From positions 7,998,001 through 8,062,000 of the forward strand of contig OX597841.1 in the NCBI GenBank assembly GCA_951406725.2: 64,000 nt of DNA. Direction: 5' to 3'. The position numbers were made by a program, and so were the translations under genes. This DNA comes from Octopus vulgaris. Lineage: Eukaryota. The notes under the pieces are model-generated. The model made no database searches and was not told the DNA's origin. It worked only from the letters and a program-made list of their open reading frames with translations. Numbering within the stretch: the stretch's first letter is position 1; the number at the start of each line of letters is the position of its first letter. Below, one piece after another: positions 1,977 to 55,263 of this stretch.

Positions 1977-2478
1977 TTTTTTCTTCAAATATAATTATAT
2001 ATATCCACATATATGTATTTAGAAACAAAAAATACTTAAATCCAGTCAGAGTCCATGTACTGAATATGTTCTTCATCCTCTTATTTACATATTTTTAAAA
2101 AGAAAAGTATTGTCTAATAAATTTATTTGGTATGAACAAAAGGAAAAAAGGAGTAATTTTGGTTAATATGACATTTCAAACTTAGACTTTGGAAAGAGGG
2201 TTCCTTAGTAAAGTGGCACCCAAAATTCTATTCTACAAGAAAAATGCTAATGGTTATGTAAAAGTAGTACTTATTGAGAGGCTGAATGTACAAAATTTAC
2301 TTCACTGGGATATAATCTCAGAATGTACTAACAGTAAATTTAATTCTGTCAATATTTAGTACAGTTTGTACTTTTTCCCTCACTTCAATATTTGGTGGTG
2401 ATATTACCATTAAGAGAAGCCATTCACAAATATGTTTAGAGCAATAAGGGTTTTTCTGAGATTACATTCTTGTTAGAG

Positions 2479-2507
2479 TTATCCATAAGCAGGAGTGATT
2501 TTGGATA
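2479..2507 (-). CDS. Candidate terminal coding exon, copy A (VSKITPAYG*)
   Basis: Acceptor cttttccccttcag|TA, with TAA at the same position as in copy B. Confidence 0.33.
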
Positions 2508-2891
2508 CTGAAGGGGAAAAGCTGATCCCATTTACCTTTGGAAATCTGTTCCATTTTTTGTGTCTCATGTCTAAGCAAGTATCTACTGAATTCAATATTA
2601 GTTGTATACCAATTTGGGTTATTTGTTTAAATAAAACTTTAAAAATATATGCATATGAACTGCATTAATAAAGGTAAGATAAATAAAGGTGTAAAATATA
2701 AGTTACATATGAATGTTTGCAAGAAGTTCTTTGCATATGCAATGAAATTTTAACACCTTCAAAGTTTTAATTTCAATCATACATATATATTAAGCTGCAT
2801 ATTCTACCCAAAGAAAGAATGAGCCAAACTATTTGCTAATCTTGCTCTAATGAAAATAATTTTTTTGTTAATAAATTGCTTATATACTTAC

Positions 2892-2933
2892 CAGCAGGTT
2901 TATTTGAAGCGTTAACGTAAGTACCATCCGTGC
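2892..2933 (-). CDS. Cytoplasmic tail exon, copy A (STDGTYVNASNKPA)
   Basis: Acceptor ttttaaatttcttaaag|GC, donor CTG|gtaagt, 42 nt, phase 1-1. Paralog of 8237-8278. Confidence 0.72.
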
Positions 2934-3168
2934 CTTTAAGAAATTTAAAAAAAGAACAAATAGCATGGCTATAAATAATATTTAAATTAAGATAGCTGTG
3001 TAATGATTCTACCATAATAAATACTAATGAGATAGACTCAAACACACTCACACATACATACATGCATATTAATAGACAAAAGTTAGAGAGTGACATATTT
3101 CGTAATAGTTCACTGTCTGTTTATTTTAAAGATAGGTTCTAAGATCATGCAATATTGATTGTACTTAC

Positions 3169-3228
3169 TTCGTTGTCCCATTTCTAAATATTTCGGCTCG
3201 CTAACCTCAGCACATTGTTCTTCCACAG
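3169..3228 (-). CDS. Cytoplasmic tail exon, copy A (AVEEQCAEVSEPKYLEMGQR); 5' boundary uncertain
   Basis: Donor GAA|gtaagt is intact. The acceptor homologous to copy B reads TG instead of AG. In-frame phase-1 alternative acceptors would start the exon at 3219 or 3309. Confidence 0.55.
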
Positions 3229-3374
3229 CATCAAGAAATAAAATGAAAGGCATATTTATTGTTTGGAGGGTGTGATTTAAATATTTTGATGATACACAGA
3301 AAGTAGCAGCTATATGTAGATAGTAGAAAAAGAAATAGAAAGCCCTTGGTACAGTATTAGATATCTGAAAAACT

Positions 3375-3706
3375 GAATAGAAATGGCTTTTCTGATAATT
3401 TTCCACTTTAATAATTAGGTGTTTATAAGTTTAGAAAAAGGTAACTCTTGAATTCAAATAGTTACCCAAAGCATGGGTGAGGGCAGTTGCTGAGGCCATT
3501 GCTTCTGCTTTCCTTTTCTAAAGTTCTTTACTGGCCTGTTGCTGTGGAAGGACCTTCAAGAAAAAAGGAAAGCAGAAGCAATGGCCTCAACAACTGCCCT
3601 CACCCATGCTTTAGTTGACTAACTGAATTCAGGTGTTACCTGTTTGTAAACTTATAAACATCTAATTATTGAAGTGGAAAAATTATCAGAAAAGCCATTT
3701 CTATTC
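3375..3706. repeat. Fold-back (hairpin) element, copy 2, ~145-bp arms and ~40-nt loop
   Basis: 3375 gaatagaaatggcttttctgataatt pairs with aattatcagaaaagccatttctattc 3706. It is followed by a terminus (gtgtctggggagagtcatt) also seen at ~57867. Confidence 0.92.
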
Positions 3707-3839
3707 TTCATTTTTGTATTTGGTTTGCAAAATTCTTTATATGAGTTTGTGTGTTGAAGCATATTTTGTGGTGTCTGGGGAGAGTCATTCTCTTTTATTG
3801 CCTTATTATTTAACACACTTACCTGTAAATTTTCCACTC

Positions 3840-3874
<35 letters not shown>

Positions 3875-4066
3875 GAATTTACAAAAACAAAACAAAACAA
3901 AAGACGAAGATGGGTGTGTAAACAACAAACAGATGTATTAGTTTAACGCTCGGGAAGTGAGAAAGTCTTTTATGTTTCAAGCCGACGCTCTTTGACAGAA
4001 AGGAACACAGAAATAAACAGGGAGAGAAAATAGAGAAAGGTTCAGTGGCTAGCGATCTATCATGGG

Positions 4067-4126
<60 letters not shown>

Positions 4127-4147
4127 ATACATATATATATATATATA

Positions 4148-4538
4148 TTCTTTTACTCTTTTATTTGTTTCAGTCATTTGACTGTGGCCATGCTGGAGCA
4201 CCGCCTTTAGTCGAGCAAATCGACCCCGGGACTTATTCTTTTTAAGCCTAGTACTTACTCTTTCGGTCTCTTTTGCTGAACTGCTAAGTGACGGGGACGT
4301 AAACACATCAGCATCGGTTGTCAAGCGATGTTGGGGGTACAAACACAGACACACACACATATATATATACATATATACGACAGGCTTCTTTCAGTTTCTG
4401 TCTACCAAATCCACTCACAAGGCATTGGTCGGCCCGGGGCTATAGCAGAAGACACTTGCCCAAGGTGCCACGCAGTGGGACTGAACCCGGAACCATGTGG
4501 TTGGTTAGCAAGCTACTTACCACACAGCCACTCCTGCA
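4148..4538 (-). mobile_element. tRNA-derived SINE
   Basis: Minus-strand head gcaggagtggctgtgtggtaag...gggttcagtccc has A/B boxes, with an internal (TA)/(CA) tract. Related copies lie at 7776-8130, 32575-32900, ~17095 and ~33138. Confidence 0.85.
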
Positions 4539-4627
4539 TCTAAATATATATATATATACCAGAGTAAACACATAAATGTGAAACAAGGTGGAAAAAAGAG
4601 TACTCAAATACCAGGGGTAGAGTAATA

Positions 4628-4756
4628 TGCTTTATTTAAAAGCAGCAGAAAATTCAACAAAACCTGTTATTCTAGCAAAAAATGTTCGACGAACGGGAAC
4701 GTGAAACTCAGAGTAACAGGTTTTGTTGAATTTTCTGCTGCTTTTAAATAAAGTAT
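4628..4756. repeat. Small fold-back terminus of a Penelope-like element
   Basis: ctttatttaaaagcagcagaaaattcaacaaaacctgtta pairs with taacaggttttgttgaattttctgctgcttttaaataaag. The same terminus is at 31465-31545. Flanked by (TA)n. Confidence 0.75.
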
Positions 4757-4769
4757 ATATATATATAGC

Positions 4770-5883
4770 TTTCGACATGTTTACAGTGAAAAGCAACTTC
4801 ACATGTGCTTCGGAGAACCTAATATACTCACTAACCTGCTCCAGGTGTCAAGAGCAGTACATAGGCCAAACAAAAAATAGTTTGCGTAAACGAATGGCCC
4901 TGCACAGATCCCAGATAAAAATTCCCCAAAACAGAAAAATAGCTTTTAGCCAACACATAGATACTTGCGCCAACAAAAAAACACCAAGCTTCAGGATTTT
5001 CCCCCTCTACCAATTTAGGGACGATACAACCTCGAGACAACGAATAAGTAAAGAAACTCTCTTTATTGCAAAATACAGGCCACTTCTTAACGGGTCTACG
5101 ACAAACAATTAATATACCTCAACTTTAGAATAAAAGAAATATTCACACACAAATATTACATTCCAAAGAATCCATTACTAATCACAGCTAAAATCACAGC
5201 TATAATCCATAACATGCCAACTTCAAGTCATACAACACCTCACTACTTTAACCCATTCATATTTTCCCTTCTCTGTTTTTTTCTTCTTCTTCCTCTTCTT
5301 CTTCATCATCATCATTATCATCATCATCGTCGTCATAACCATCACCACCATCACCATCATCGTCATCTTCTCCTTCTCCTTCTTCTTCTTCTTCATCATC
5401 ATCATCATCAACATCGTCATCTTCTTCTTCTTCTACTTCTCCACCTTCTACCCCTTAACTTTGTCACTAACGTTTCTTAGTATAACACCTACGCAAATTC
5501 TATAAACAAGCCTTTCAATAGAAATATTCTCCTGAATTGAACTGCGACTGCCAGCCGCCACTGACCATTCAAAATACGACCATCAGGGCACTCCCAGATT
5601 CTCCCACCCCCTTTCCTCATCAGCCTTCTTCCCCTACTACCCTACCAAGAACTCACAACTACCTCCAACACACAAGTGCAAACAAGGAAGTCAGAGAAAG
5701 GCAGAATGCTACTTATATCTGAACACTACTATAGAAATATTCCTTTAAAAAAACTTTTCTTCTAATTTTTCTAAAGTTAATTATTTAATCGTTACAGTTG
5801 AAAAGGTCTCAAAATGACCGAAACCGGTACTGAAATGTTCACTATAAAATTATTTTAGCATTTTCTATTTTTGACTTGTTTTC

Positions 5884-5890
<7 letters not shown>
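4770..5890 (+). mobile_element. Penelope-like element 3' fragment: GIY-YIG endonuclease plus pLTR/3' region
   Basis: FTCASENLIYSLTCSRCQEQYIGQT...LRKRMALH...RQRISKETLFI...P.LN matches the PLE GIY-YIG domain with CxxC. Ends in (TA)n and carries a hammerhead motif at 5795-5832. Confidence 0.9.
5795..5832 (+). ncRNA. Minimal type-I hammerhead ribozyme motif, U3-A8 core variant
   Basis: cag-UUGAAAA-gguc(ucaaaau)gacc-GAAA-ccgg-UA-cug: stem I cag/cug, stem II gguc/gacc, palindromic stem III ACCGGU, GUA cleavage triplet. Confidence 0.7.
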
Positions 5891-5943
<53 letters not shown>

Positions 5944-5968
5944 AATGTATATTTTATATATATATTTA

Positions 5969-6450
5969 TCATCATCATCATTGTTTAACGTCCATTTTCC
6001 ATGCTAGCATGGATTGGACGGTTCGACCGGGGTCTGGGAAGCCAGAAGGCTGCACCAGGCTCCTGTCTGATCTGGCAGTGTTTCTACAGCTGGATGCCCT
6101 TCCTAACACCAACCACTCCGTGAGTGTAGTGGGTGCTTTTTACGTGCCACCGGCACAGGTGCCAGGCAAGGCTGGCAATGGCCACGATCAGTTGGTGCTT
6201 TTCACGTTCCACTGGCATGGAAGCCAGTCAAGGCAGCGCTGGATTCAGCCACGTTCGGATGGTGCTTTTTACGTGCCACTGGCAGAGGGATCACAACTGC
6301 AATTTCCATTGATTTTTGATGTTGATGTACTTCACTCAATAGGTCTCCTGAAACACAAGGTTGGAACGGTGTTTCTTTACTTGCCACCTGCACATGAGTC
6401 AGTCCAGCAGCACTGGCAACTGCCAGGTGCCAGTCATAGGATTGGTTCAA
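5969..6450 (-). mobile_element. RTE LINE 3' UTR fragment with (ATG)n tail
   Basis: catcatcat-tgtttaacgtccattttccatgctagcatgg...ctggatgcccttcctaac. The same family recurs at more than 10 sites in the window. Confidence 0.8.
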
Positions 6451-6596
6451 TTTCGAAACAATTAACACAGAAAAAAATAGACAAATATTTACCGGGGTAG
6501 CAAGAAATCATACAAGTAAAAAGGTTGTAACTCCTTATTTTTAAAGGTAGAAACACCAGGTTTATGTGAAATATTTTGTATAATATATATAAATAA

Positions 6597-6947
6597 ATAA
6601 ATGGAGTTAAACGCAGGTGTTATGCAAATTCTTTTACTTCCAACACATGTTTCGAAGATATCACTGGTATTATTCCAAAGGAATAAAATGGTGTAAAACA
6701 ACGTAATCTTTTCTTCAGGGAAATGAAGAAATGAAACTCGTCATTAAGATGTTTTAACAGAAAATGATGGATATGTATAGTGATTGACTGAACGCTATTA
6801 AGTTTGTTTTTAAAAAAACGTTAGAGGATACAGCGTCAAAGGTAGCCTATAGAAAGAGGAGGGGTAATTCCTTTGGAATAATACCAGTGATATCTTTGAA
6901 ACATGTCGGAAGTAAAAGAATTTGAATAACACCTGCGTTTAACTCCA

Positions 6948-6955
<8 letters not shown>
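6597..6955. mobile_element. Penelope-like fold-back element with hammerhead-like motif
   Basis: Arms ~6597-6685 and ~6867-6955 are inverted. Minus strand 6638-6722 reads uucc-CUGAAGA-aaagau...aucuuc-GAAA-caugu...ggaa. Flanked by (TA)n. Confidence 0.7.
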
Positions 6956-7013
<58 letters not shown>

Positions 7014-7482
7014 AACACATGTATTTTAAAACAAAAAATACTTAAATCCAGGCGAAGTCCATGTACTGAATATGTTCTTCATCCTCTCATTTACATATTG
7101 TATAAAAGAAAAGTATTGTCTAATAAATCTATTTGGTATGAACAAGAGTAAACAAAGAGTAATTTTGGTTAATATGCCATTTCAAAATTAGACTTCTGAA
7201 AGAGGCTTCCTCAGTAAAGTGGCACCCAAAATTTTATTCTATGAGCAAAATGCTAATGATTATGTAAAAGTAGAACTTATTGAGAGGCTGATTGTACAAA
7301 GTGTACTTCTCTGGGATATAATCTCAAAATGTACTAACACTAAATTTAATTGTCAATATTTAGTACAGTGTGTACTATTTCTATCACTTCAATATTTAAT
7401 TGTGATATTAACATTAAGGGAAGCTATTCACAAATATGTTTAGAGCAACAAGGGTTTTTCTAAGATAAATTTCTTGCTAGAG

Positions 7483-7511
7483 TTATAAATAAACAGGAGT
7501 GATTTTGGATA
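7483..7511 (-). CDS. Candidate terminal coding exon, copy B (VSKITPVYL*)
   Basis: Acceptor ttaactgttctcctccag|TA. In phase 1 it ends at a TAA that is positionally conserved in copy A. It is short, so support is limited. Confidence 0.35.
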
Positions 7512-7775
7512 CTGGAGGAGAACAGTTAATCACATTTACTATTGCAAATTTATTCCCATTCATTGTGTCTCATGCCTTGGCAAATATCTACTGAATTCAT
7601 TATTACTTAATTATTTGGATTTTTTTGTACAAATAAAGCCAACAAAGTAAATTTTTATGAACTGCATTATTAAGGGTAAGGATTGATAAAAAGGTAAAAT
7701 ATCAGAGTTAAATAGGAATATCTGTAAGAAGTTTATCGTATATGCAATGGAATTTTAATATTTTGAAAGGTTTTT

Positions 7776-8130
7776 AGGTGTGGCTGTGAGGTAAGAAGTT
7801 TAATTTCCAAACAAATGGGTCTGGGTTTCGTCACATGATGAGGCACATTGGGCGAGTGTATTCTGCTATAATCCTGGGCGGACCAAAATCTTGTGAATGG
7901 ATTTGGTATATATATAAGGGAGTGTGTGTGCCTTTGCGTTTGATCCCCATCACCACTTGACACTTGTGTTGGTTTGTTCACATCCACAGAACTTAGCAGT
8001 TTAGCAAAAGAAACCAATAGAATAAGTAAAAGGCTTAAAAATAATAAGTACTCGGGTGGATTTGTTGGACTGAACCCTTGAAAGTGGTGCCTTAGCATGG
8101 CTGCAGTCCAATGACTGGAACAAATGAAAG
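7776..8130 (+). mobile_element. tRNA-derived SINE (older copy) present in cassette copy B only
   Basis: ggtgtggctgtgaggtaagaag...gcatggctgcagtccaatgactggaacaa. Absent from the homologous position in copy A (~2775). Confidence 0.8.
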
Positions 8131-8236
8131 ACATGCATTAAGCTGCCTATACTACTCAAAGAAAGAGTGAACCAAAATGTTGCTAACTCTTGCTCTAATG
8201 AATGAAATTTTATTATTCGATTGCTTATATACTTAC

Positions 8237-8278
8237 CATCAGGTTTCCTTGAAACATTAACGTAAGAAATCTTCATGT
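8237..8278 (-). CDS. Cytoplasmic tail exon, copy B (DMKISYVNVSRKPD; ITIM ISYVNV)
   Basis: Acceptor tttctaattttttaaag|AC, donor ATG|gtaagt, 42 nt, phase 1-1. Paralogous to 2892-2933, with splice sites conserved. Confidence 0.8.
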
Positions 8279-8498
8279 CTTTAAAAAATTAGAAATAAAA
8301 ACAATAAATAGCGTTATGTTAGTATTGTGTTGATACTACAATCATAAATGCTAATGAGACAGACTCAAACACACTCATACACACATATTAAAAGATAAAA
8401 GTTAGAGAATGATACATTTCATGACTGTTAGCTTTCTGTTAATGTTTAAGATAATTTCTAAGATCATGCTGTGTACTAACAATATTGTTTATACTTAC

Positions 8499-8558
8499 CT
8501 GCTGGTTTCAATTCTAAATAACTGGGCCCACTAGCTTCAGCATATTGCTCTTCATTAG
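8499..8558 (-). CDS. Cytoplasmic tail exon, copy B (ANEEQYAEASGPSYLELKPA)
   Basis: Acceptor tttttgaag|CT, consensus donor CAG|gtaagt, 60 nt, phase 1-1. Paralogous to 3169-3228. Confidence 0.75.
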
Positions 8559-9902
8559 CTTCAAAAAATTATAGAAAGATGTGCACATTTATTGTTTGGA
8601 GAGGATAGTTTTAATATTTTGATATTGTACAAAAAGTAACTAAAAAAAATAAAATACTAGTGAGATCTGTGGAAATTCCACAGAACGAAAGAGATTAAGC
8701 AAAGCTATTTAAGAAAGAAAGGATGATTGTTATTTGTATTTTGCTAAGTGATTTCACTTCCAGTTGCAAAATAGTATATGATTTTGAAATTTCCTTCTGC
8801 TAAGCACCTTATATTTCTCTCTTTCTCTCTACCTCTTCAACAAACATTTTAACCATGTAATTCCCCTCTTCATGTCTTTAACATTTCCCTCTTTCTCTTT
8901 CCACCCTACAGCATGTCATTAACACTTCTCTCTCTCCCACTTTCCTCTCATTGTAGTTGTGTCTTGCTCTTTGCCTCCCCCTCAACTAACTACGTGATGC
9001 ATTTGACCTTAGTGTATTATTATACTCCTCTCTTCTTCTTGCTTCTCTACCCACATTTCTCCCTCTTTCTCTCACTTTTACTCAACCTCTCACTCATTCC
9101 ACTTCCACCTCTCTAACAAACTAAAGTATAACAGGTGAAGAAAGAAGCAAATTATTATATAGATAGTGTATATTTTATATGCAACAATGTTTTCACACAT
9201 GCTACCCCAAGAAACCGAACTAAATCAGCTCTTCTAAACTGCATCTTTCTCTTCTTCACATTTCCTCTTCCTGCCATTAAAAACATCTCCAAAGTATGGT
9301 TCACCTCCTATTGACATTTGTCCTCTATCCTTACCATCAATGAGCTAACCTCCACTGTTGTTATTGATTTTCCCTTTTTCCACTACTCGCCACATCTTAC
9401 ATCTGCTGCCACTTCCAACAGACATCCATTCCATGTTCCTACCACAAATGATCCTCCACCCTTCAAATCGGTATCCCTTTCTTAATTTCCCCACTAATCA
9501 CAACTGCCAGCCCCACAACTCATGACCCTATAATGAGCCCTCCATCATTCTCCTGTCGAAAGTGCTATTCTGCTGCTGTAAGAGACAAAAGCAGAATACA
9601 CCATACATTTATACCATACATATTGCCATCTCTGTACTGTGAGTTGCCACTTCCTTTCCTTTGTACTATTTCCAGTCAGCATCTATCCCTTATTCTTACT
9701 GTGTCCCCTTCTATACGTAAATCCTTTCCCTGTTCATGATTTATTACAACTCCTATGTTCATTTGACCTGTTTTATTCCATGGTTTGTATTCACCTCCTT
9801 TTCTCCCAAACTCTTACAACCTTACACACCAGCATCCCTGATTCTGAAGTATCATCACTATAAATACAGAATGGAAGAAGATATGAGAGTGGAGGTCAAG
9901 TA

Positions 9903-10598
<696 letters not shown>

Positions 10599-17993: not shown

Positions 17994-18013
17994 CTTGTAT
18001 TTCAATAGTTAAG
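17994..18013 (-). CDS. 20-nt microexon ((D)LTIEIQ + G)
   Basis: Acceptor aatttctctttataaag| and donor AAG|gtaatt, phase 2 to 1. It exactly restores frame between the 19-nt microexon and the 8558 exon. Confidence 0.55.
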
Positions 18014-21700: not shown

Positions 21701-22597
21701 TTCTCTCTCATTCTGACCCCTATTATTTATAGTCGTTCAGTCGAGTCTGTTCTCACAGGGGGTGTCATGACTCTCGCCACAACACAGGGAAAGGATGAAA
21801 AGATCATAACTAGAATGCCTTTGGTAAAATGTCTGTTCAATCAAGGCTAACTTATTAAGATATAATGTTTTTCAGCTTTTTCATTACCTTTAACTCGAGA
21901 TGATTGACTTAACCACTGAACAGATTGTTTCCTTTCAGCTTATATTCAGTTTCTTGGATGCTGCTCTTGAATTTCATTTCTAAAATATAGTTGGCATTTC
22001 TTATGCATCACAAACTTTGAAAAGTATTCTATAGAATATCTTTTAAAGAAGCAGGTAGGTAAGCCAAAATGCAAATTTCTTAAAACAAAACTTAACTTTT
22101 GCTGATGAAGTCCTATTAAATTCATAAAATAATTATAAAATAAATCATCATCATCACCATCTCGTGTAAGCCAAATCCATCAAATTCATCTCATAAAAAT
22201 CAAAACTTAACTTTTGCATGAATCATCCTATTAAATTCATATCATCATCATCATTCATAATCATCATCATCATCATCGTCGTCGTCGTCGTCTCTCGTCG
22301 TCATCATCATCATCATCATCATCATCATGTTCAATCATCATCATGTTAGTCTAATTGTTCAATATTTGTTAGATTGAGACAAATTTCTACTGCATCACCT
22401 GCTACACTGCTGTGTTGCTGGGGGTTGCAGCATTGTATGTTCTTTTCTGCTGTTGGGAGTGTGCATCTTCCCAGTACTCTACTGTATTACCTTTTTTTCC
22501 CTTGAGATGTGGTGCTGTCTTCTGTTGCATTACTGCTTATATTATGTGTTGAGTGTGTAGTGCTTTGGCTGTTTTAGCTTGCTGGTGGAAGTATATT

Positions 22598-24445: not shown

Positions 24446-24498
<53 letters not shown>

Positions 24499-24590
24499 TT
24501 AGAGACAAAACCACTATTAAGCAAATCAAACAAACAAAGACTTAATCCAATACATAAAAAATTTATATAAATTAAATAAAATTAAATTCG

Positions 24591-24636
24591 CCACTACAAT
24601 TGTTTCGTGTCTCTTCTAAGGACATTCATCAGGTGG
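24591..24636 (-). ncRNA. Minimal type-I hammerhead ribozyme (identical copy, on the host-gene sense strand)
   Basis: Exact reverse complement of 25780-25825. Confidence 0.82.
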
Positions 24637-25779
24637 TATTCAGATCTAAAAATAATCAATATTTTTAAGATATAAATTTAAAATGACTAAAAAATATAAA
24701 TAAAATAAATTTATCAATGATAAATATATCTATATATAATCTATATATAATCAAGAACTAAAATAACCTCTATAAACTATTGAATATAATGAAACCTAGT
24801 ATTTAAGTTCTCATATTTAAAGATGAAGAATCTAATTTCAAAACAAAAAGCAAAATAAAATATATATACACACATGCTCATACACATATATCTAAGTATA
24901 TATATAAAAACATATCTAAATACATACACTAACTCACACACATATATATATCTCTATATATGTATCTGCTGAATTTGTTACTCCTCTGTGTTGGAGTGTT
25001 GCGTGGGAGATGCGGTTGTGTGTAAGTGATTGTGTGTGTGTGGGTGTGCATTGTTTATGTGTAGAAATGTTGTTTTCTTTTGGGTGTTTATGTATGTGTG
25101 AATGTGTGAGTGTGTGTGTGTTTGTTTGCGTATTTGTGTATGTTTGCTGTATGTATGTGGTATTTGGAATATGTGTGTGTGTTTGTTTTAAGTATTTATG
25201 TATGGTTGTTGTATATATGTGGTATATGGAATTTGGTAGTTTCTTGCTAAGAATGAAATGTTTCTGTGGGTTGTGGTTGAGTATCTGCAGCTGCTGGATG
25301 TGGTGTTTCCTATGTGTTGTTGTCATGCTGAGTGAGTGTTTTTATGAATGAGGGTTGTATGTGTGTGAGTGGGAGTATGAATAAGTAATGTGTAGTAGTA
25401 TACGGCTACTTTATTAATTTATCGTTGCCTAGATGTTTATGTGTATGTATAGAGATATATATATGTGTGTGTGAGTTAGTGTATGTATTTAGATATGTTT
25501 TTATATATATACTTAGATATATGTGTATGAGCATGTGTGTATATATATTTTATTTTTGCTTTTTGTTTTGAAATTAGATTCTTCATCTTTAAATATGAGA
25601 ACTTAAATACTAGGTTTCATTATATTCAATAGTTTATAGAGGTTATTTTAGTTCTTGATTATATATAGATTATATATAGATTATATATATATTTTTCATT
25701 GATAAATTTATTTTATTTATATTTTTTAGTCATTTTAAATTTATATCTTAAAAATATTGATTATTTTTAGATCTGAATA

Positions 25780-25825
25780 CCACCTGATGAATGTCCTTAG
25801 AAGAGACACGAAACAATTGTAGTGG
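25780..25825 (+). ncRNA. Minimal type-I hammerhead ribozyme
   Basis: ccac-CUGAUGA-a-uguc(cuuagaaga)gaca-c-GAAA-caauug-UA-gugg: canonical core, stem I ccac/gugg, palindromic stem III ACAAUUGU. Predicted cleavage after A25821. Confidence 0.82.
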
Positions 25826-26454
25826 CGAATTTAATTTTATTTAATTTATATAAATTTTTTATGTATTGGATTAAGTCTTTCTTTGTTTGATTTGCTTAAT
25901 AGTGGTTTTGTCTCTAATTAATATTATATAATATTTTACTATAAAATTGGATTCAATCCTAAATCTGATTTTTCCCTGTAAATTTGGATTTATTCCCTAA
26001 TATTTATTATATATATATATATATATATACTCAACAAAATATTTTCCTTACAAAAAGGAAGGCCATTAGCTAGATTAATTAGATATTCTCCCAGTCTTTT
26101 GGAATGTTAGTTATAATATAATCATTTAATCTATAATATATAAATCTATAGTATCTACAGTTGCATTTAGTAAATAATCAAACAATTTATACTTTTAAAC
26201 TTCATTTCCTCACAATTTCAATAGTATTTTATTTGCATAAGGATTCACTTGCAAAACTTTACACGTATAAGGTTTTGATTTACTGTCACCTTAACAAAGA
26301 TTCTATTATACTAATTGGAAAAGGCAGATAGAAGAGCCAACTAACATGTGAACTATATATGATTTTGTATTACCTTCCTACAACTTGGGTTCAACTGATA
26401 GAAATTTTCTATCTACTTTCAAATAAACAACAAATAAGAATGTTATATACTTAC

Positions 26455-26473
26455 TCTTTATTGCGTTTAACAC
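26455..26473 (-). CDS. 19-nt juxtamembrane microexon (GVKRNK + GA)
   Basis: Strong acceptor ctttttactttttttag| and donor GA|gtaagt, phase 1 to 2. The basic peptide continues the KRR of the TM exon. Confidence 0.7.
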
Positions 26474-36508: not shown

Positions 36509-36613
36509 CTCTTCTTTTGTAGAATATATAAGTAAGAAGACCCATTATTATTAATAATAATACAATTCCGACAGTGCAACCAATAATTATTTCCATAGGG
36601 ATTTCTTGCTTTT
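36509..36613 (-). CDS. Ig-superfamily receptor, transmembrane exon
   Basis: Acceptor tcttttcag|AA, donor AGAG|gtttgt, 105 nt, phase 1-1. Translates KKQEIPMEIIIGCTVGIVLLLIIMGLLTYIFYKRR: a ~23-aa hydrophobic helix followed by a basic stop-transfer KRR. Confidence 0.9.
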
Positions 36614-36721: not shown

Positions 36722-38995
36722 ACTCATCATCATTATCATCATTATCATTTAACATCCATTTTCCATTCTGGCATGGGTGGAATGGTTTGAGTGAGGTCTG
36801 GAGAGTCAGTAGCTGCACCAGGCTCCAATCTGATCTGCCATTGTTTCTACAGCAGGATGCCCTTCCTAATGCTAACCTCTCTGAGAGTGTAGTGGGGGCC
36901 ATCAGCACAGGTGCCAGTTAGGTGGGCCTGGCATTGATCATGTTCAGATAGTACTTTTTACGTGCCACCAGCACAGGAGCCAGTCAGGGGTTTCTGGCAT
37001 CGGCCACATTTGGATGGTGTTTTTACATGCCACCAGCATAGGAGCCAGTCATGCGATCCTGGAATCAATCACGTTCAGATAGTGCTTTTTATGTGCCACT
37101 GATACGGGAGCCAGTCAGAGGGTACTAGCATCAACCTCGTTTGGATGATGTTTTTTATGCTCCACCAGCATGGGAGCCAATTAGGCAGACCTGGCATTGA
37201 CCACGTTCAGATGGTGTTTTTTACATGCTACCAGCATGAGAGTCAGTGAGAGGACACTGGCATAGACCATGTTCAGATGGTGCATTTTATGTGCCACGGG
37301 AACAGGAGCCAGTCAGGAGGCACTGGGCACAGCTACAATTTTAGTTTTACTTGACTCAACAGGACTTCTCAAGCATAGCATATCACCCAACGCATCAAGG
37401 GTACTCTTAAATGGACTGGACATGCAACACTGGCATCGGCCATGGCAGTGATCTCACTTCAGTTGCCAGGTTTTCTCAATCACAGCATATCTCCAAAGGT
37501 CTTAGTCTCCTGTCATTGCCACTATGAGGCCCAGTGTTCAAAGGTCATGCTTCACCACCTCATCATATGTCTTCCCGAGTCTACCTCTACCACAGGTTCC
37601 TTCCACAGTTAGGGTGTGGCACTTCCTCACACAACTGTGCTCATCCTTATGTAACACATGACCATATCAGCGGTGTCGTCTCTCTTGCACACCACATCTG
37701 ATGTTTCTTATGTCCAACTTTTCTCTCAGGGTGCTTACATTCTGTCATATATGCACACTGGCATTACACATCCAGTGGACCATACTAGCTTAATTTCTTT
37801 CAAGCCTACGCATGTCCTCTACATTCATAGCCCATGTTTCACTGCTGTGTAGCATGGCAGTTCGCACACATGCATCATACAGTCTACCTTTCACCCTGAG
37901 TGAGAGGCCCTTAGTTGCCAGCAAAAATAGGAGCTCTCTGAACTTTTCCCAGGCTATTCTTATTCTAGCCATGACAATGTCAGAGCAACCACCCCACTAC
38001 AGATTTGGTTGCCTAGTTAGCGGAAGATATCAACTACTTCTAGTATTCCCTCCTTACATGTGATGGAATATGTTTTCTGTACATATTCAGTGTTTAATGC
38101 TCCTGTGTTTAATCTTCAGTGTTTAATGCACAAAAACTATCTTCCCAGTTAACCTTCCTTTGATATTGCTGCACCTTTTATGTGTCCATTGATTACATCG
38201 GGTACATCATATGGAGTTTCTACCTATGCATTTTCTAAAGATTGAGCAGGGCCATCTACCCGAAGTGGTTTGTGATTTTTCATCCTCCTTACTTACAAAA
38301 ACTTTGGTTTTTGCTAGGTTAACCCTAAGGCTCTTCAATTCTAGACCTTGCTTCCACACCCTAAACTCTGTCTCTAGTTCTAGCAGTGACTCGGCTATTA
38401 GAGCATGGTCATCAGCATAGAGGAGCCTGTCTTGAATTCCTCTGTTATTGCCTGGTGGACTATAATGAATAAGAGGGGACTGAGGACTGATCCCTGGTGA
38501 ACCTGTACTTCTACCTGGAATTATCCACTATACTCGTTGCCAACTCTCATCTTACTGACTGCATCCCTGTACAGCTCTTATCAACCACTTGTCCATCCTC
38601 AGTTTTCCCATTGACCATCAGATAAGGTATCAGGGGACCCTGTTATAAGCTTTCTCCAAGTCAACAAAAGCCAAGTACAGAGGTTTATATTTGGCCAGAT
38701 ATTTCTCCTGCAGTTGCCTTACCAGAGATATAGCATCAGTGGTGCTTCTGCTTGGCACAAAACCAAACTGCATCTTATCTAGGCTAACTCTCTCCATAAT
38801 TAGTTGGGCTGTGACCCTCCCCGTAACTTTCATCACCTGATCCAATAATCTGAAACTACCTGATTTACGATGTGGATGACAAGACCATAATCCACACCAC
38901 CTGATATTTTAAGCATCTCAGCAGTGATTACTTATGGGACAGGTGCTTCTCCTGTTTTCATATCCTTAATTGCTTTATCTACCAGGGTACTATCA
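36722..38995 (-). mobile_element. RTE LINE, RT plus 3' UTR with ~7 tandem ~63-bp units, decayed
   Basis: QFGFVPSRSTTDAI...LYLAFVDLEKAYNRVP, LLYADD and RIRIAWEKFRELL. Tandem array at 36890-37330 and an (ATG)n tail. Confidence 0.9.
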
Positions 38996-39279: not shown

Positions 39280-40830
39280 TAGAAATGGAGAAAGCCTTTG
39301 ACAAGATCCCCTGCTCCTTAATCTGGTAGCCAATGTAGAAGCTAGTGATAGATGAGTGCTTGGTGAGAGCCATACAAGCCATGTACAGGGACGCTGTCAG
39401 TAAGGTGAAAGTTGGCAATGAGAAGAGTAATGGATTTTGTGTACAGTTAGGTATTCATCAAGGGTGGAGGCGCAATGGCCCAGTGGTTAGGGCAGCGGAC
39501 TTGCGGTCATAGGATCGCGGTTTCGATTCCCAGACCGGGCATTGTGAGTGTTTATTGAGCGAAAACACCTAAAGCTTCACAAGGCTCCTGCAGGGGGTGG
39601 TGGTGAACCCTGCTGTACTCTTTCACCACAACTTTCTCTCACTCTTTCTTCCTGTTTCTGTTGTACCTGTATTTCAAAGGGCCAGCCTTGTCACACTCTG
39701 TGTTACGCTGAATCTCCTCGAGAACTACGTTAAGTGTACGCGTGTCTGTGGAATGCTCAGCCACTTGCACGTTAATTCCACGAGCAAGCTGTTCCGTTGA
39801 TCGTATCAGCTGGGACCCTCATCGTCGTAACCGACGGAGTGCTCCTCCTTCACCAAGGATCAGTTCTTAGCTTCCTCTTCTTTATCATAGTCCTCCAGGC
39901 CATAACAGAAGAATTTAAGACTGATTGCCTTTGGGAGCTCATCTATGCTGATGAGCTTGTTCTTATAGCTGAATCTCTACTAGAATTGTAAAAGAAATTT
40001 CAGGTGTGGAGACAAGGTCTGGAATCAAAGGGCCTTAGAATTATTTAAGCAAAGACCAAAGTCCTAGTAAGTAGGAAAGCAGACAAGTTATTAATCTCTT
40101 CAGGGAGACAGCTGTTCTTGATATGCAGAAAAGGTAGAGGTAGAAATTCCATAAATTGTACTCAGTGTAGCACACAAGAAATACTGCAGTATCATAGGAA
40201 GTTTAACAGAAAAACTAGTCTTTGTGTGTCACAGGTAAGCAGGTACAATAAAAACTAAGAATGTATGAAGTAGGTGGGCAGTTCTTTACAAGTGTAGATA
40301 GCTTCCATTACCTTGATGACCAAGTTAACAGTGGAGGAGAATGCTCTGAAAATGTAGTTGCTAGAATAAGAATGTGCTGGGCAATGTTGCAGGTAACAAA
40401 AGGCCTCTCTCTCAGAGTGAAAGGTAGAATGGATGATGCCTATGTATGGATAGTGACAGTGAAACATGGGCTGTGACTGCAGAGGGTGAGTGAAGGCTTG
40501 AAAGAAATGAAGCCAGCCTATTCCAGTGGATGTGCAATGTCAGTGTGCATGTACAATAGAGTGTAAGCATTTTGAGAAAAAAATTGGGTATAAGTGGCAA
40601 CAGATGCAGTGTGCAAGAGAGAAGACTGTACTGGTACAGTCGTGTGATGCATATGGCTGAGGACAGCTGCATAAAGAAGTGCTGATCTGTAAACTTTTAA
40701 ATGAGGTAAACTGAGGAAGATACGAGACAAAGTGGTGAGAAATGATCTTCAGATGTTGAGCCTCACACAGGAGATGACAAAGGACCGAGACTTCTGGTGA
40801 TTTGTTGTGCTTGAGAAGATATGTCAAACT
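39280..40830 (+). mobile_element. RTE LINE RT fragment, decayed, interrupted by a SINE
   Basis: EKAFDKIP...HQGSVLSFLFFIIV...LIYADELVL...LSLRVKGR. Confidence 0.88.
39464..39848 (+). mobile_element. Young tRNA-derived SINE with target-site duplication
   Basis: A box tggcccagtgg, B box ggtttcgattcc. TSD ttcatcaagg (39454-39463) / ttcaccaagg (39849-39858). An older copy lies at ~41480-41770. Confidence 0.9.
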
Positions 40831-44628: not shown

Positions 44629-44937
44629 TCTTATATCTCAAAGTAAAAACAACAGTTTCTTTTCCTATGGAGTTTTCCACTGTTAAGGTATAAGTACCAA
44701 TAGCATCATCTTTGATGTCTTCTATCTTTAAACTAGTACAGCTTCCTTTGAAAGGAAACTCATCTTGTAAATAATCAGTTATTAAATATTTGTTTGAGTC
44801 AATTGATTCCTCATTTTTCTGCCATTTTACATCAGATTTTGGATGCGAATAAAAACACTGTTTGAAAATTACAGTTTCTCCATTTGAAACATTTCTCTTT
44901 TTTGGACCATTTGATCCTGAACTGAACATGGCTTTCA
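44629..44937 (-). CDS. Ig-superfamily receptor, membrane-proximal Ig (I-set-like) exon
   Basis: Acceptor ttttccaccag|TG, donor AAGA|gtaagt, 309 nt, phase 1-1. Translates VKAMFSSGSNGPKKRNVSNGETVIFKQCFYSHPKSDVKWQKN...GSCTSLKIEDIKDDAIGTYTLTVENSIGKETVVFTLRYK. Confidence 0.92.
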
Positions 44938-48949: not shown

Positions 48950-49201
48950 CTGGAATTTTGTAGTTTGATGACTTAGTCACATTAAAATCTTCATTGATTA
49001 CATGACACTCCCATGTACCAGTATTATTGAAGGAAGGATTGTTTATAGATAATTCTTCTTCATTATAAGTATTCTTAGTGGTGTTTCCCCATTTTTGCTT
49101 CAGTTCATATTTATGATTTGCTGGATTTCCACCAGATGCAGTGCAACTAATTATTATTTTATTTGTCTTTTTTGAAATATTAAAGTTTACTTGAGGAGGA
49201 T
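48950..49201 (-). CDS. Ig-superfamily receptor, Ig-domain exon with non-canonical GC donor
   Basis: Acceptor ttttttaag|AT, donor CAG|gcaagt, 252 nt, phase 1-1. Translates YPPQVNFNISKKTNKIIISCTASGGNPANHKYELKQKWGNTTKNTYNEEELSINNPSFNNTGTWECHVINEDFNVTKSSNYKIP (Ig Cys...L-x-I...TGTWEC). The ORF track shows only its last few codons. Confidence 0.9.
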
Positions 49202-55014: not shown

Positions 55015-55263
55015 ATTTCAACAGGATATTAATTTCCTTTCTGGCTGTCAAATTTCCATTCCTTTCGCTCTTTGCAATGGCAGTGCAGGAAACACGACTG
55101 ATATTTTTACGATTAAAAGTTAATATAGAATTTGAAAGGAACGTTCGATTTTCATCCTCCAACCACACTTCTGGGGTAGGGTTTCCTTTTGCATTACAGT
55201 CTATAATGGATGCTTGATTCTCAAATAATGTCACATTCTCTGGTGCAGTAATATCAGGTGGAT
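55015..55263 (-). CDS. Ig-superfamily receptor, Ig-domain exon (most 5' exon found in the window)
   Basis: Acceptor ttttatag|AT, donor AAAT|gtatgt, 249 nt, phase 1-1. Translates (Y/D)PPDITAPENVTLFENQASIIDCNAKGNPTPEVWLEDENRTFLSNSILTFNRKNISRVSCTAIAKSERNGNLTARKEINILLK, with the Ig C-x-A-x-GNP-x-P-x-V-W pattern and a second Cys. Confidence 0.9.

Follow-up and report, generated by a model that had tools for sequence, protein, structure and literature searches.

The window analysed here, a 64,000-nucleotide stretch of Octopus vulgaris DNA (C28:7998001-8062000 under our contig label), carries part of a gene for an immunoglobulin (Ig) superfamily (IgSF) receptor, whose homologous proteins are labelled Octopus, together with two copies, A and B, of a cassette of small cytoplasmic-tail exons. 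We consider it probable that A and B are tandem-duplicated, frame-keeping micro-exon pairs of one tyrosine-rich tail, likely spliced in series with skipping of single exons, and that the window holds a partial copy, likely without function, of a gene that is intact on another contig, C5. A preliminary description of the window had given each cassette a terminal exon of its own, and had proposed that one ectodomain is coupled by 3' exon choice to an inhibitory-type or an activating-type tail, which would make a paired receptor within one gene.

The duplicated unit lies on the minus strand, as do all exons given below, and runs from 8638 to 6995 in B and from 3305 to 1989 in A (similarity-search E 1e-80 and 0.0), with a repeat of ~360 bp inserted within B at 8131-7776. 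Both copies hold a 60-nucleotide (nt) and a 42-nt micro-exon, and all four exons have a gtaagt donor and phase 1-1; in this the preliminary description was right, and the peptides that it gave for both copies were recovered on re-reading the sequence. The 60-nt exon of B (8499..8558; AG/GT intact) encodes QYAEA and YLEL, and its 42-nt exon (8237..8278) encodes ISYVNV. The corresponding exons of A encode QCAEV and YLEM (3169..3228) and YVNA (2892..2933; AG/GT intact). At the homologous acceptor position, 3228, the 60-nt exon of A reads TG instead of AG; the two acceptors previously proposed for it, 3219 and 3309, are in-frame AGs that do exist, but neither is the homologous site. Loss of the acceptor AG is recurrent in 60-nt modules (window 3228; C5:28757246, 28577828, 27868571 and 27679214), and public models of two C5 genes, g3 (in two species) and g2, splice such modules to an in-frame AG 6 or 9 nt downstream. 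Two O. sinensis models (P0003, P0197) begin the A-type exon 3 nt upstream, which adds an Asp. Inside the window the unit is present twice, as had been stated, but a third cassette, C, stands just outside it at window -6163/-6451, ~6 kb past the window, with TG as acceptor and AT as donor. In a tree of 43 60-nt modules, the modules group by gene (13 label changes vs 27.9 when shuffled), with weak deeper forks; A falls with C and two modules of the C5 gene g7 (95/90), and B with a single g7 module (100/100). A and B are thus nearest to different g7 modules and are not each other's closest copies.

Regarding the family to which these cassettes belong, searches with the exon pair and with the adjoining part of the unit (segment T) gave 43 matches each, all on C5, C28 and C31. 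Seven genes with Ig and transmembrane (TM) exons lie on C5 at 27.4-29.3 Mb. In the arrays of g1-g5 and g7 there are 87 modules altogether, 40 of them 60-nt-type and 47 42-nt-type, or 8-19 phase-1 modules per gene; 66 of the 87 are intact (AG, GT, whole codons, no stop) and 21 are broken. This census covers six C5 genes and leaves out two unmapped hits, antisense hits of segment T and the near-identical copies of g6, C28 and C31. All modules of an array stand upstream of one shared terminal exon, which occurs once after each array, at seven places on C5 and nowhere on C28 or C31 (7/7 candidates scored). Public models read this exon in two frames, one ending in GYQ/DYQ-stop and the other continuing into a longer ITSEG/VTNEG end (C5:28751159, 28230384).

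Segment T is what had been taken for the terminal exon of each cassette, beginning at 7511 in B (6995..7511, stop at 7485-7483) and at 2507 in A (1989..2507). In both copies it is likely an intron of the duplicated unit. The two acceptors look acceptable in the window, but the homologues of T are not exon-like: among 26 of them, one has CAG, TAG or AAG at the acceptor position, 13 have GAG and 12 have no AG, so that a normal acceptor is found in 1/26 T homologues vs 77/87 modules (Fisher p 5e-16). Frameshifts and scattered stops are present in these homologues, and both the reading frame and the position of the stop vary freely; in g7 the next exon pair interrupts the T region once 155 nt have passed. 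The T peptide occurs in none of the 205 proteins fetched, 54 of which have tail modules. With one terminal exon per array, no normal acceptor in 25/26 T homologues and no T peptide among these proteins, the model of alternative 3' exons, and with it the choice between an inhibitory and an activating tail, is left unsupported. Some features of T do speak against its being an intron, and they would fit a rival explanation, namely that the g7/C28 lineage took up T as a terminal exon, B-T and A-T being alternative 3' ends. The T segments of B and A have a pyrimidine-rich CAG acceptor unlike those of their paralogues, and a pyrimidine-rich YAG at T is confined to B, A and the g7/g6 lineage. T is also 87-90% identical between A and B, above the 77-86% of the introns; AATAAA/ATTAAA hexamers come after each T copy (3 and 2 of them over ~490 nt, against a window mean of 1.7 per kb), and no other terminal exon exists in the C28/C31 copies. 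Compared with distant paralogues, however, T is 66-81% identical and the exon-intron part 68-79%; T shows no higher conservation than the remainder, an outcome consistent with later copying or conversion of the T part. Since the orthologous models moreover join B to A, we regard the recruitment of T as unlikely.

How the modules are joined was judged from public protein and gene models of three Octopus species, which point to splicing in series, with single modules likely skipped. Ten proteins contain the 60-nt exon of B: seven of them also contain that of A, two join it to an A-type 42-nt exon, and one runs into intron. Models holding B include O. sinensis XP_036355409.1, with the order TM, B, A, the isoforms X1-X3 of LOC115229375, and O. 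bimaculoides XP_052824007.1. Mutually exclusive use of A and B is therefore not borne out by these gene models, while concatenation of the two tails, which had been mentioned as a side option, is what they display. At three O. bimaculoides loci the isoforms are distinguished by the last exon and by individual modules of 14 or 20 residues, and O. sinensis isoforms likewise differ by single modules of these lengths. At O. sinensis LOC115229375, X3 omits exactly the ISYVNV exon, which X1 and X2 keep. RefSeq isoforms are usually based on RNA-seq alignments. It counts against concatenation that its evidence consists of gene models, three of which (P0137, P0003 and P0009) are clearly chimeric; P0137 has a leucine-rich repeat/adhesion G-protein-coupled receptor-like gene fused to tail exons and is likely an annotation chimera.

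The tyrosines of the modules follow a pattern. In the 28 intact 60-nt modules the second Tyr is kept in 24, with Met at +3 in 18 of those 24; the 38 intact 42-nt modules keep Tyr in 34, of which 28 have Asn at +2 and 26 have D or G at -2. [quoted passage not shown] ISYVNV of the B 42-nt exon does fit the former, as had been claimed, and an ITIM is present in 3/38 intact 42-nt and 1/28 intact 60-nt modules. The ITAM-like arrangement attributed to B is no ITAM, its last residue being V; the strict motif was found in 0/51 tail-bearing proteins scanned. Nor did A lose an ITIM and gain YxxM; with YxxM and YxN common across the modules and the ITIM rare, the reverse applies, A being near the family norm and B the exception. 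YxxM is bound by the SH2 domains of p85, and YxN by that of Grb2. The acidic YxN and the YxxM modules of the intact C5 genes may then be kinase substrates that dock Grb2-type and p85-type SH2 proteins; the gain, loss and skipping of exons would set the number and mix of docking sites per receptor, and the rare ITIM module of the g7 lineage could add an optional phosphatase site. A weakness of this scheme is that SH2 binding is predicted from general motif rules.

A more sceptical explanation is that the arrays are mostly neutral duplication debris, with incidental tyrosines and skipping as splicing noise. The broken modules, the many recent near-identical copies and a ratio of nonsynonymous to synonymous rates (dN/dS) near 0.8 agree with it; the family value, 0.75-0.83, is weak evidence of constraint and thus a point against a functional tail. 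It is hard to reconcile, however, with the retention of Tyr, Asn +2 and Met +3 at the frequencies given above, with most modules keeping their splice sites while T decays, or with the presence of the modules in models of three species, and a cuttlefish relative (P0061) has EPQYIN (YIN) repeats of its own; we think this explanation very improbable. The same dN/dS argues against positive selection on the modules, which we do not claim. The exon versus intron comparison of A and B gave 71/102 identical positions in exons (70%) and 514/641 in introns (80%), with p 0.019 calculated after the fact, and between the Ig exons of the window and those of g7 there are 31 changes that are nonsynonymous and 4 that are synonymous (p 0.13 for departure from neutrality). 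Together the exon excess and the Ig-exon changes hint, without reaching significance across the family, that the protein changes fast.

The gene copy in the window can be followed through three Ig exons. The most 5' one found is at 55015..55263 (tblastn with P0001; Pfam Ig_3, E 7e-5; AG/GT), followed by one at 48950..49201 (Ig_3, E 3e-4) with a GC donor that is common to g4, g5 and g7 on C5, and by a membrane-proximal I-set exon at 44629..44937 (E 1.5e-11) with splice sites. The TM exon (36509..36613, 105 nt, phase 1-1) is spliced to Ig exons in a retro-fragment on C15, and has no charged residue for adaptor pairing. Between it and B there are two micro-exons missed by the preliminary description: the first cytoplasmic one (26455..26473, 19 nt, phase 1-2) encodes VKRNK, a peptide present in P0001, P0074 and P0197, and the second (22096..22112, 17 nt, phase 2-1) encodes TSSAK and has TT as its donor here. 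An exon candidate ending at 17994, whose donor had been proposed as a joining point, was rejected: its peptide is in 0/52 proteins checked, and the donor is kept in g7 and g3 and lost in g6. Pfam Ig domains in the three window exons and in full-length homologues, with a single TM exon followed by the tail, mark the family as type I IgSF receptors; TM is joined to tail modules in P0197, P0062 and other public models. The public model of the window copy itself is P0062 (CAI9742789.1), which begins within the last Ig exon, continues from TM to the 60-nt exon of B and then to the 42-nt exon of A, and ends in unrelated sequence.

Several parts of an intact receptor are missing at this locus. The window copy is colinear with g7 at 95%, only as far as window 69776. 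The N-terminal Ig exon was found on C5 alone (9 matches; 15/15 candidates scored) and not on C28 or C31, and the terminal exon too is found on C5 alone. The exon for aa 416-499 was seen on C5, C31 and C15 and not on C28, in a search that recovered 5/7 C5 genes; one more ectodomain exon (aa ~223-329) lay outside the genome-wide exon searches. The donor of the 17-nt exon is TT in 4/4 C28/C31 copies and GT in the 4/4 C5 copies found, and TG acceptors occur besides. Because it lacks N-terminal exons as well as the true last exon and has broken splice sites, in a stretch otherwise colinear with an intact parent, the window gene is likely a dead partial duplicate. Two considerations weigh on the other side: its three Ig exons are free of stops, and C28/C31 are highly duplicated with assembly gaps, so that the missing parts could be assembly faults. 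A TA tract of ~660 bp (9906..10570, no strand assigned) stands where g7 has 34 kb with several tail exons and where a 99% sister copy, C31a, has 4.6 kb with a 42-nt YATI exon; it is possibly an assembly collapse.

The copy might instead be a real short gene of 3-5 Ig domains, TM and a B+A tail with its own start, or a whole gene split by the assembly. For such a gene one may cite the open Ig and TM exons with proper sites, the presence in C31a of the 42-nt exon and of a further two upstream exons that the window lacks, and similar partial models in O. sinensis (P0003, P0197); joint skipping of the 19-nt and 17-nt exons would preserve the frame, and TG acceptors are bypassed through a nearby AG in the g3 and g2 models. 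What makes it improbable in our view is that the N-terminal and terminal exons were not found outside C5, that the TT donor is in all four C28/C31 copies and C31a is without a TM exon, and that the changes relative to g7 carry no sign of purifying selection. A dead duplicate remains the preferred reading, and for that reason study should turn to the genes on C5 at 27.4-29.3 Mb, g7 first among them.

The IgSF family on C5 appears to be undescribed, and it is there, rather than in the window copy, that the interest lies, which we would call moderate. No paper on the Octopus family was found, although subscription journals and the supplements of octopus genome or hemocyte papers may list the loci; PMC13186322 names octopus in its reference list only. 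Direct homologues with the same modules and terminal exon (LOC115212114/116/119/249, LOC115229375, LOC106874069, LOC106869178, LOC106879981 and LOC106880794) are annotated merely as uncharacterised, and the full-length close relatives are all from Octopus (12/12). We tentatively suggest, with less than even confidence, that this cluster encodes seven-Ig receptors with tails of 8-19 micro-exons, each carrying one phosphotyrosine site, and that signalling is tuned in cells through the skipping of individual exons, one of them an ITIM exon of the g7 lineage that can be switched on or off. Such a receptor would be paired inside one gene; of the paired receptor as first conceived, isoforms with and without an ITIM appear to survive in the LOC115229375 models, produced by skipping one internal exon, and the alternative tails do not. 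Little is known of the receptors that serve immunity and recognition in cephalopods, and the C5 cluster offers candidates for hemocyte or self-recognition studies. As a fast-evolving IgSF cluster in which micro-exon duplication and skipping change tail length and motif mix, it would also allow a direct test, in an invertebrate, of the number of SH2 docking sites against signal output.

Known systems resemble this family in part. Among vertebrate paired receptors of the CEACAM1 L/S, Siglec and LILR/KIR types, which are Ig receptors, the inhibitory motif can be spliced out, and LAT-type adaptors have several YxN sites and are multivalent docking tails for Grb2-type proteins. The best PDB matches of the octopus family are ICAM-1 and Robo2 at E 2e-6, and no orthology to the vertebrate paired receptors is shown. 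In crustacean Dscam (PMC6851185) one Ig ectodomain is combined with tail exons that are kept or skipped, altering the tyrosine motifs, and the last exon is used in two frames; the octopus family, going by its gene models, is alike in all these respects. The Dscam tail exons are mutually dissimilar, however, whereas the octopus tail consists of tandem copies of two units. Further, Pfam gave no Fn3 match, no ectodomain exon arrays were seen, and the PDB match to Dscam (E 1e-4) covers one short stretch. The fester co-receptors (FcoR) of Botryllus are described, in the preprint PMC11507803, as type I receptors that are clustered and restricted to a lineage and that bear ITIM and acidic [E/D]VY core motifs. 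Their splice variants gain or lose an ITIM, as the octopus isoforms appear to do, but their motifs have no regular spacing, while those of the octopus tails recur periodically, each micro-exon supplying one, and are for the most part YxN/YxxM. With Hydractinia Alr (PMC9546547) the octopus cluster shares a tandem IgSF arrangement that includes pseudogenes and partial duplicates, along with alternative splicing and tails bearing tyrosine motifs; unlike it, Alr has an Fn3-like domain and tails with the true ITAMs that the octopus proteins scanned do not contain. Judged by sequence, the octopus family appears to be a member of none of Dscam, FcoR and Alr, and no link to allorecognition is shown.

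Several neighbours of the family on C5 and elsewhere deserve mention. A ~70-kb duplicate, g6 (C5:28570049-28639423), repeats at 98-99% the whole 3' end of g7 from the 17-nt exon to the true terminal exon; it lies 178 kb downstream of g7 (C5:28748280-28815915) and has no TM exon of its own. It either makes a stronger case for a second complete tail or is a duplication produced by the assembly. Another gene, g8 (C5:29.16-29.32 Mb; P0051), carries another kind of repeat, LYAKV, and its tail closes with YAEL and TIYADL, which brings it nearer to the classic inhibitory type; a g8-like gene is present in Argonauta (P0053). Two distant matches (34-35%) to the N-terminal Ig exon lie at C5:98632679-98757893, far from the cluster.

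The locus around the window is rich in duplications. C28:7958001-7978168 and 8075311-8109670 form an 88-96% repeat offset by about 130 kb; an inverted 99% copy (C28b) lies 2.7 Mb away at C28:10.68-10.73 Mb, and three copies on C31 are at 2.84, 6.65 and 9.11 Mb, one of them with B doubled. The ~99% sister copies, C28b and C31a-c, may be true duplicates or haplotigs. The C15 retro-fragment (L021:4261-5466; C15:67915761-67916966) is a spliced, frameshifted complementary DNA fragment of five Ig exons and TM; it ends at the TM exon and is therefore uninformative on the tail. It sits inside a repeat, and the flanks of that repeat are similar to an element at window 24481-25934 that has inverted repeats of ~490 bp, which makes capture of an mRNA by a DNA transposon possible. 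Other open frames and repeats in the window, at 59556-59026, 195-1277, 37449-38529, 39849-40817, 4717-5109 and 58959-58618, resemble fragments of mariner transposase, long interspersed element (LINE) reverse transcriptase and GIY-YIG.

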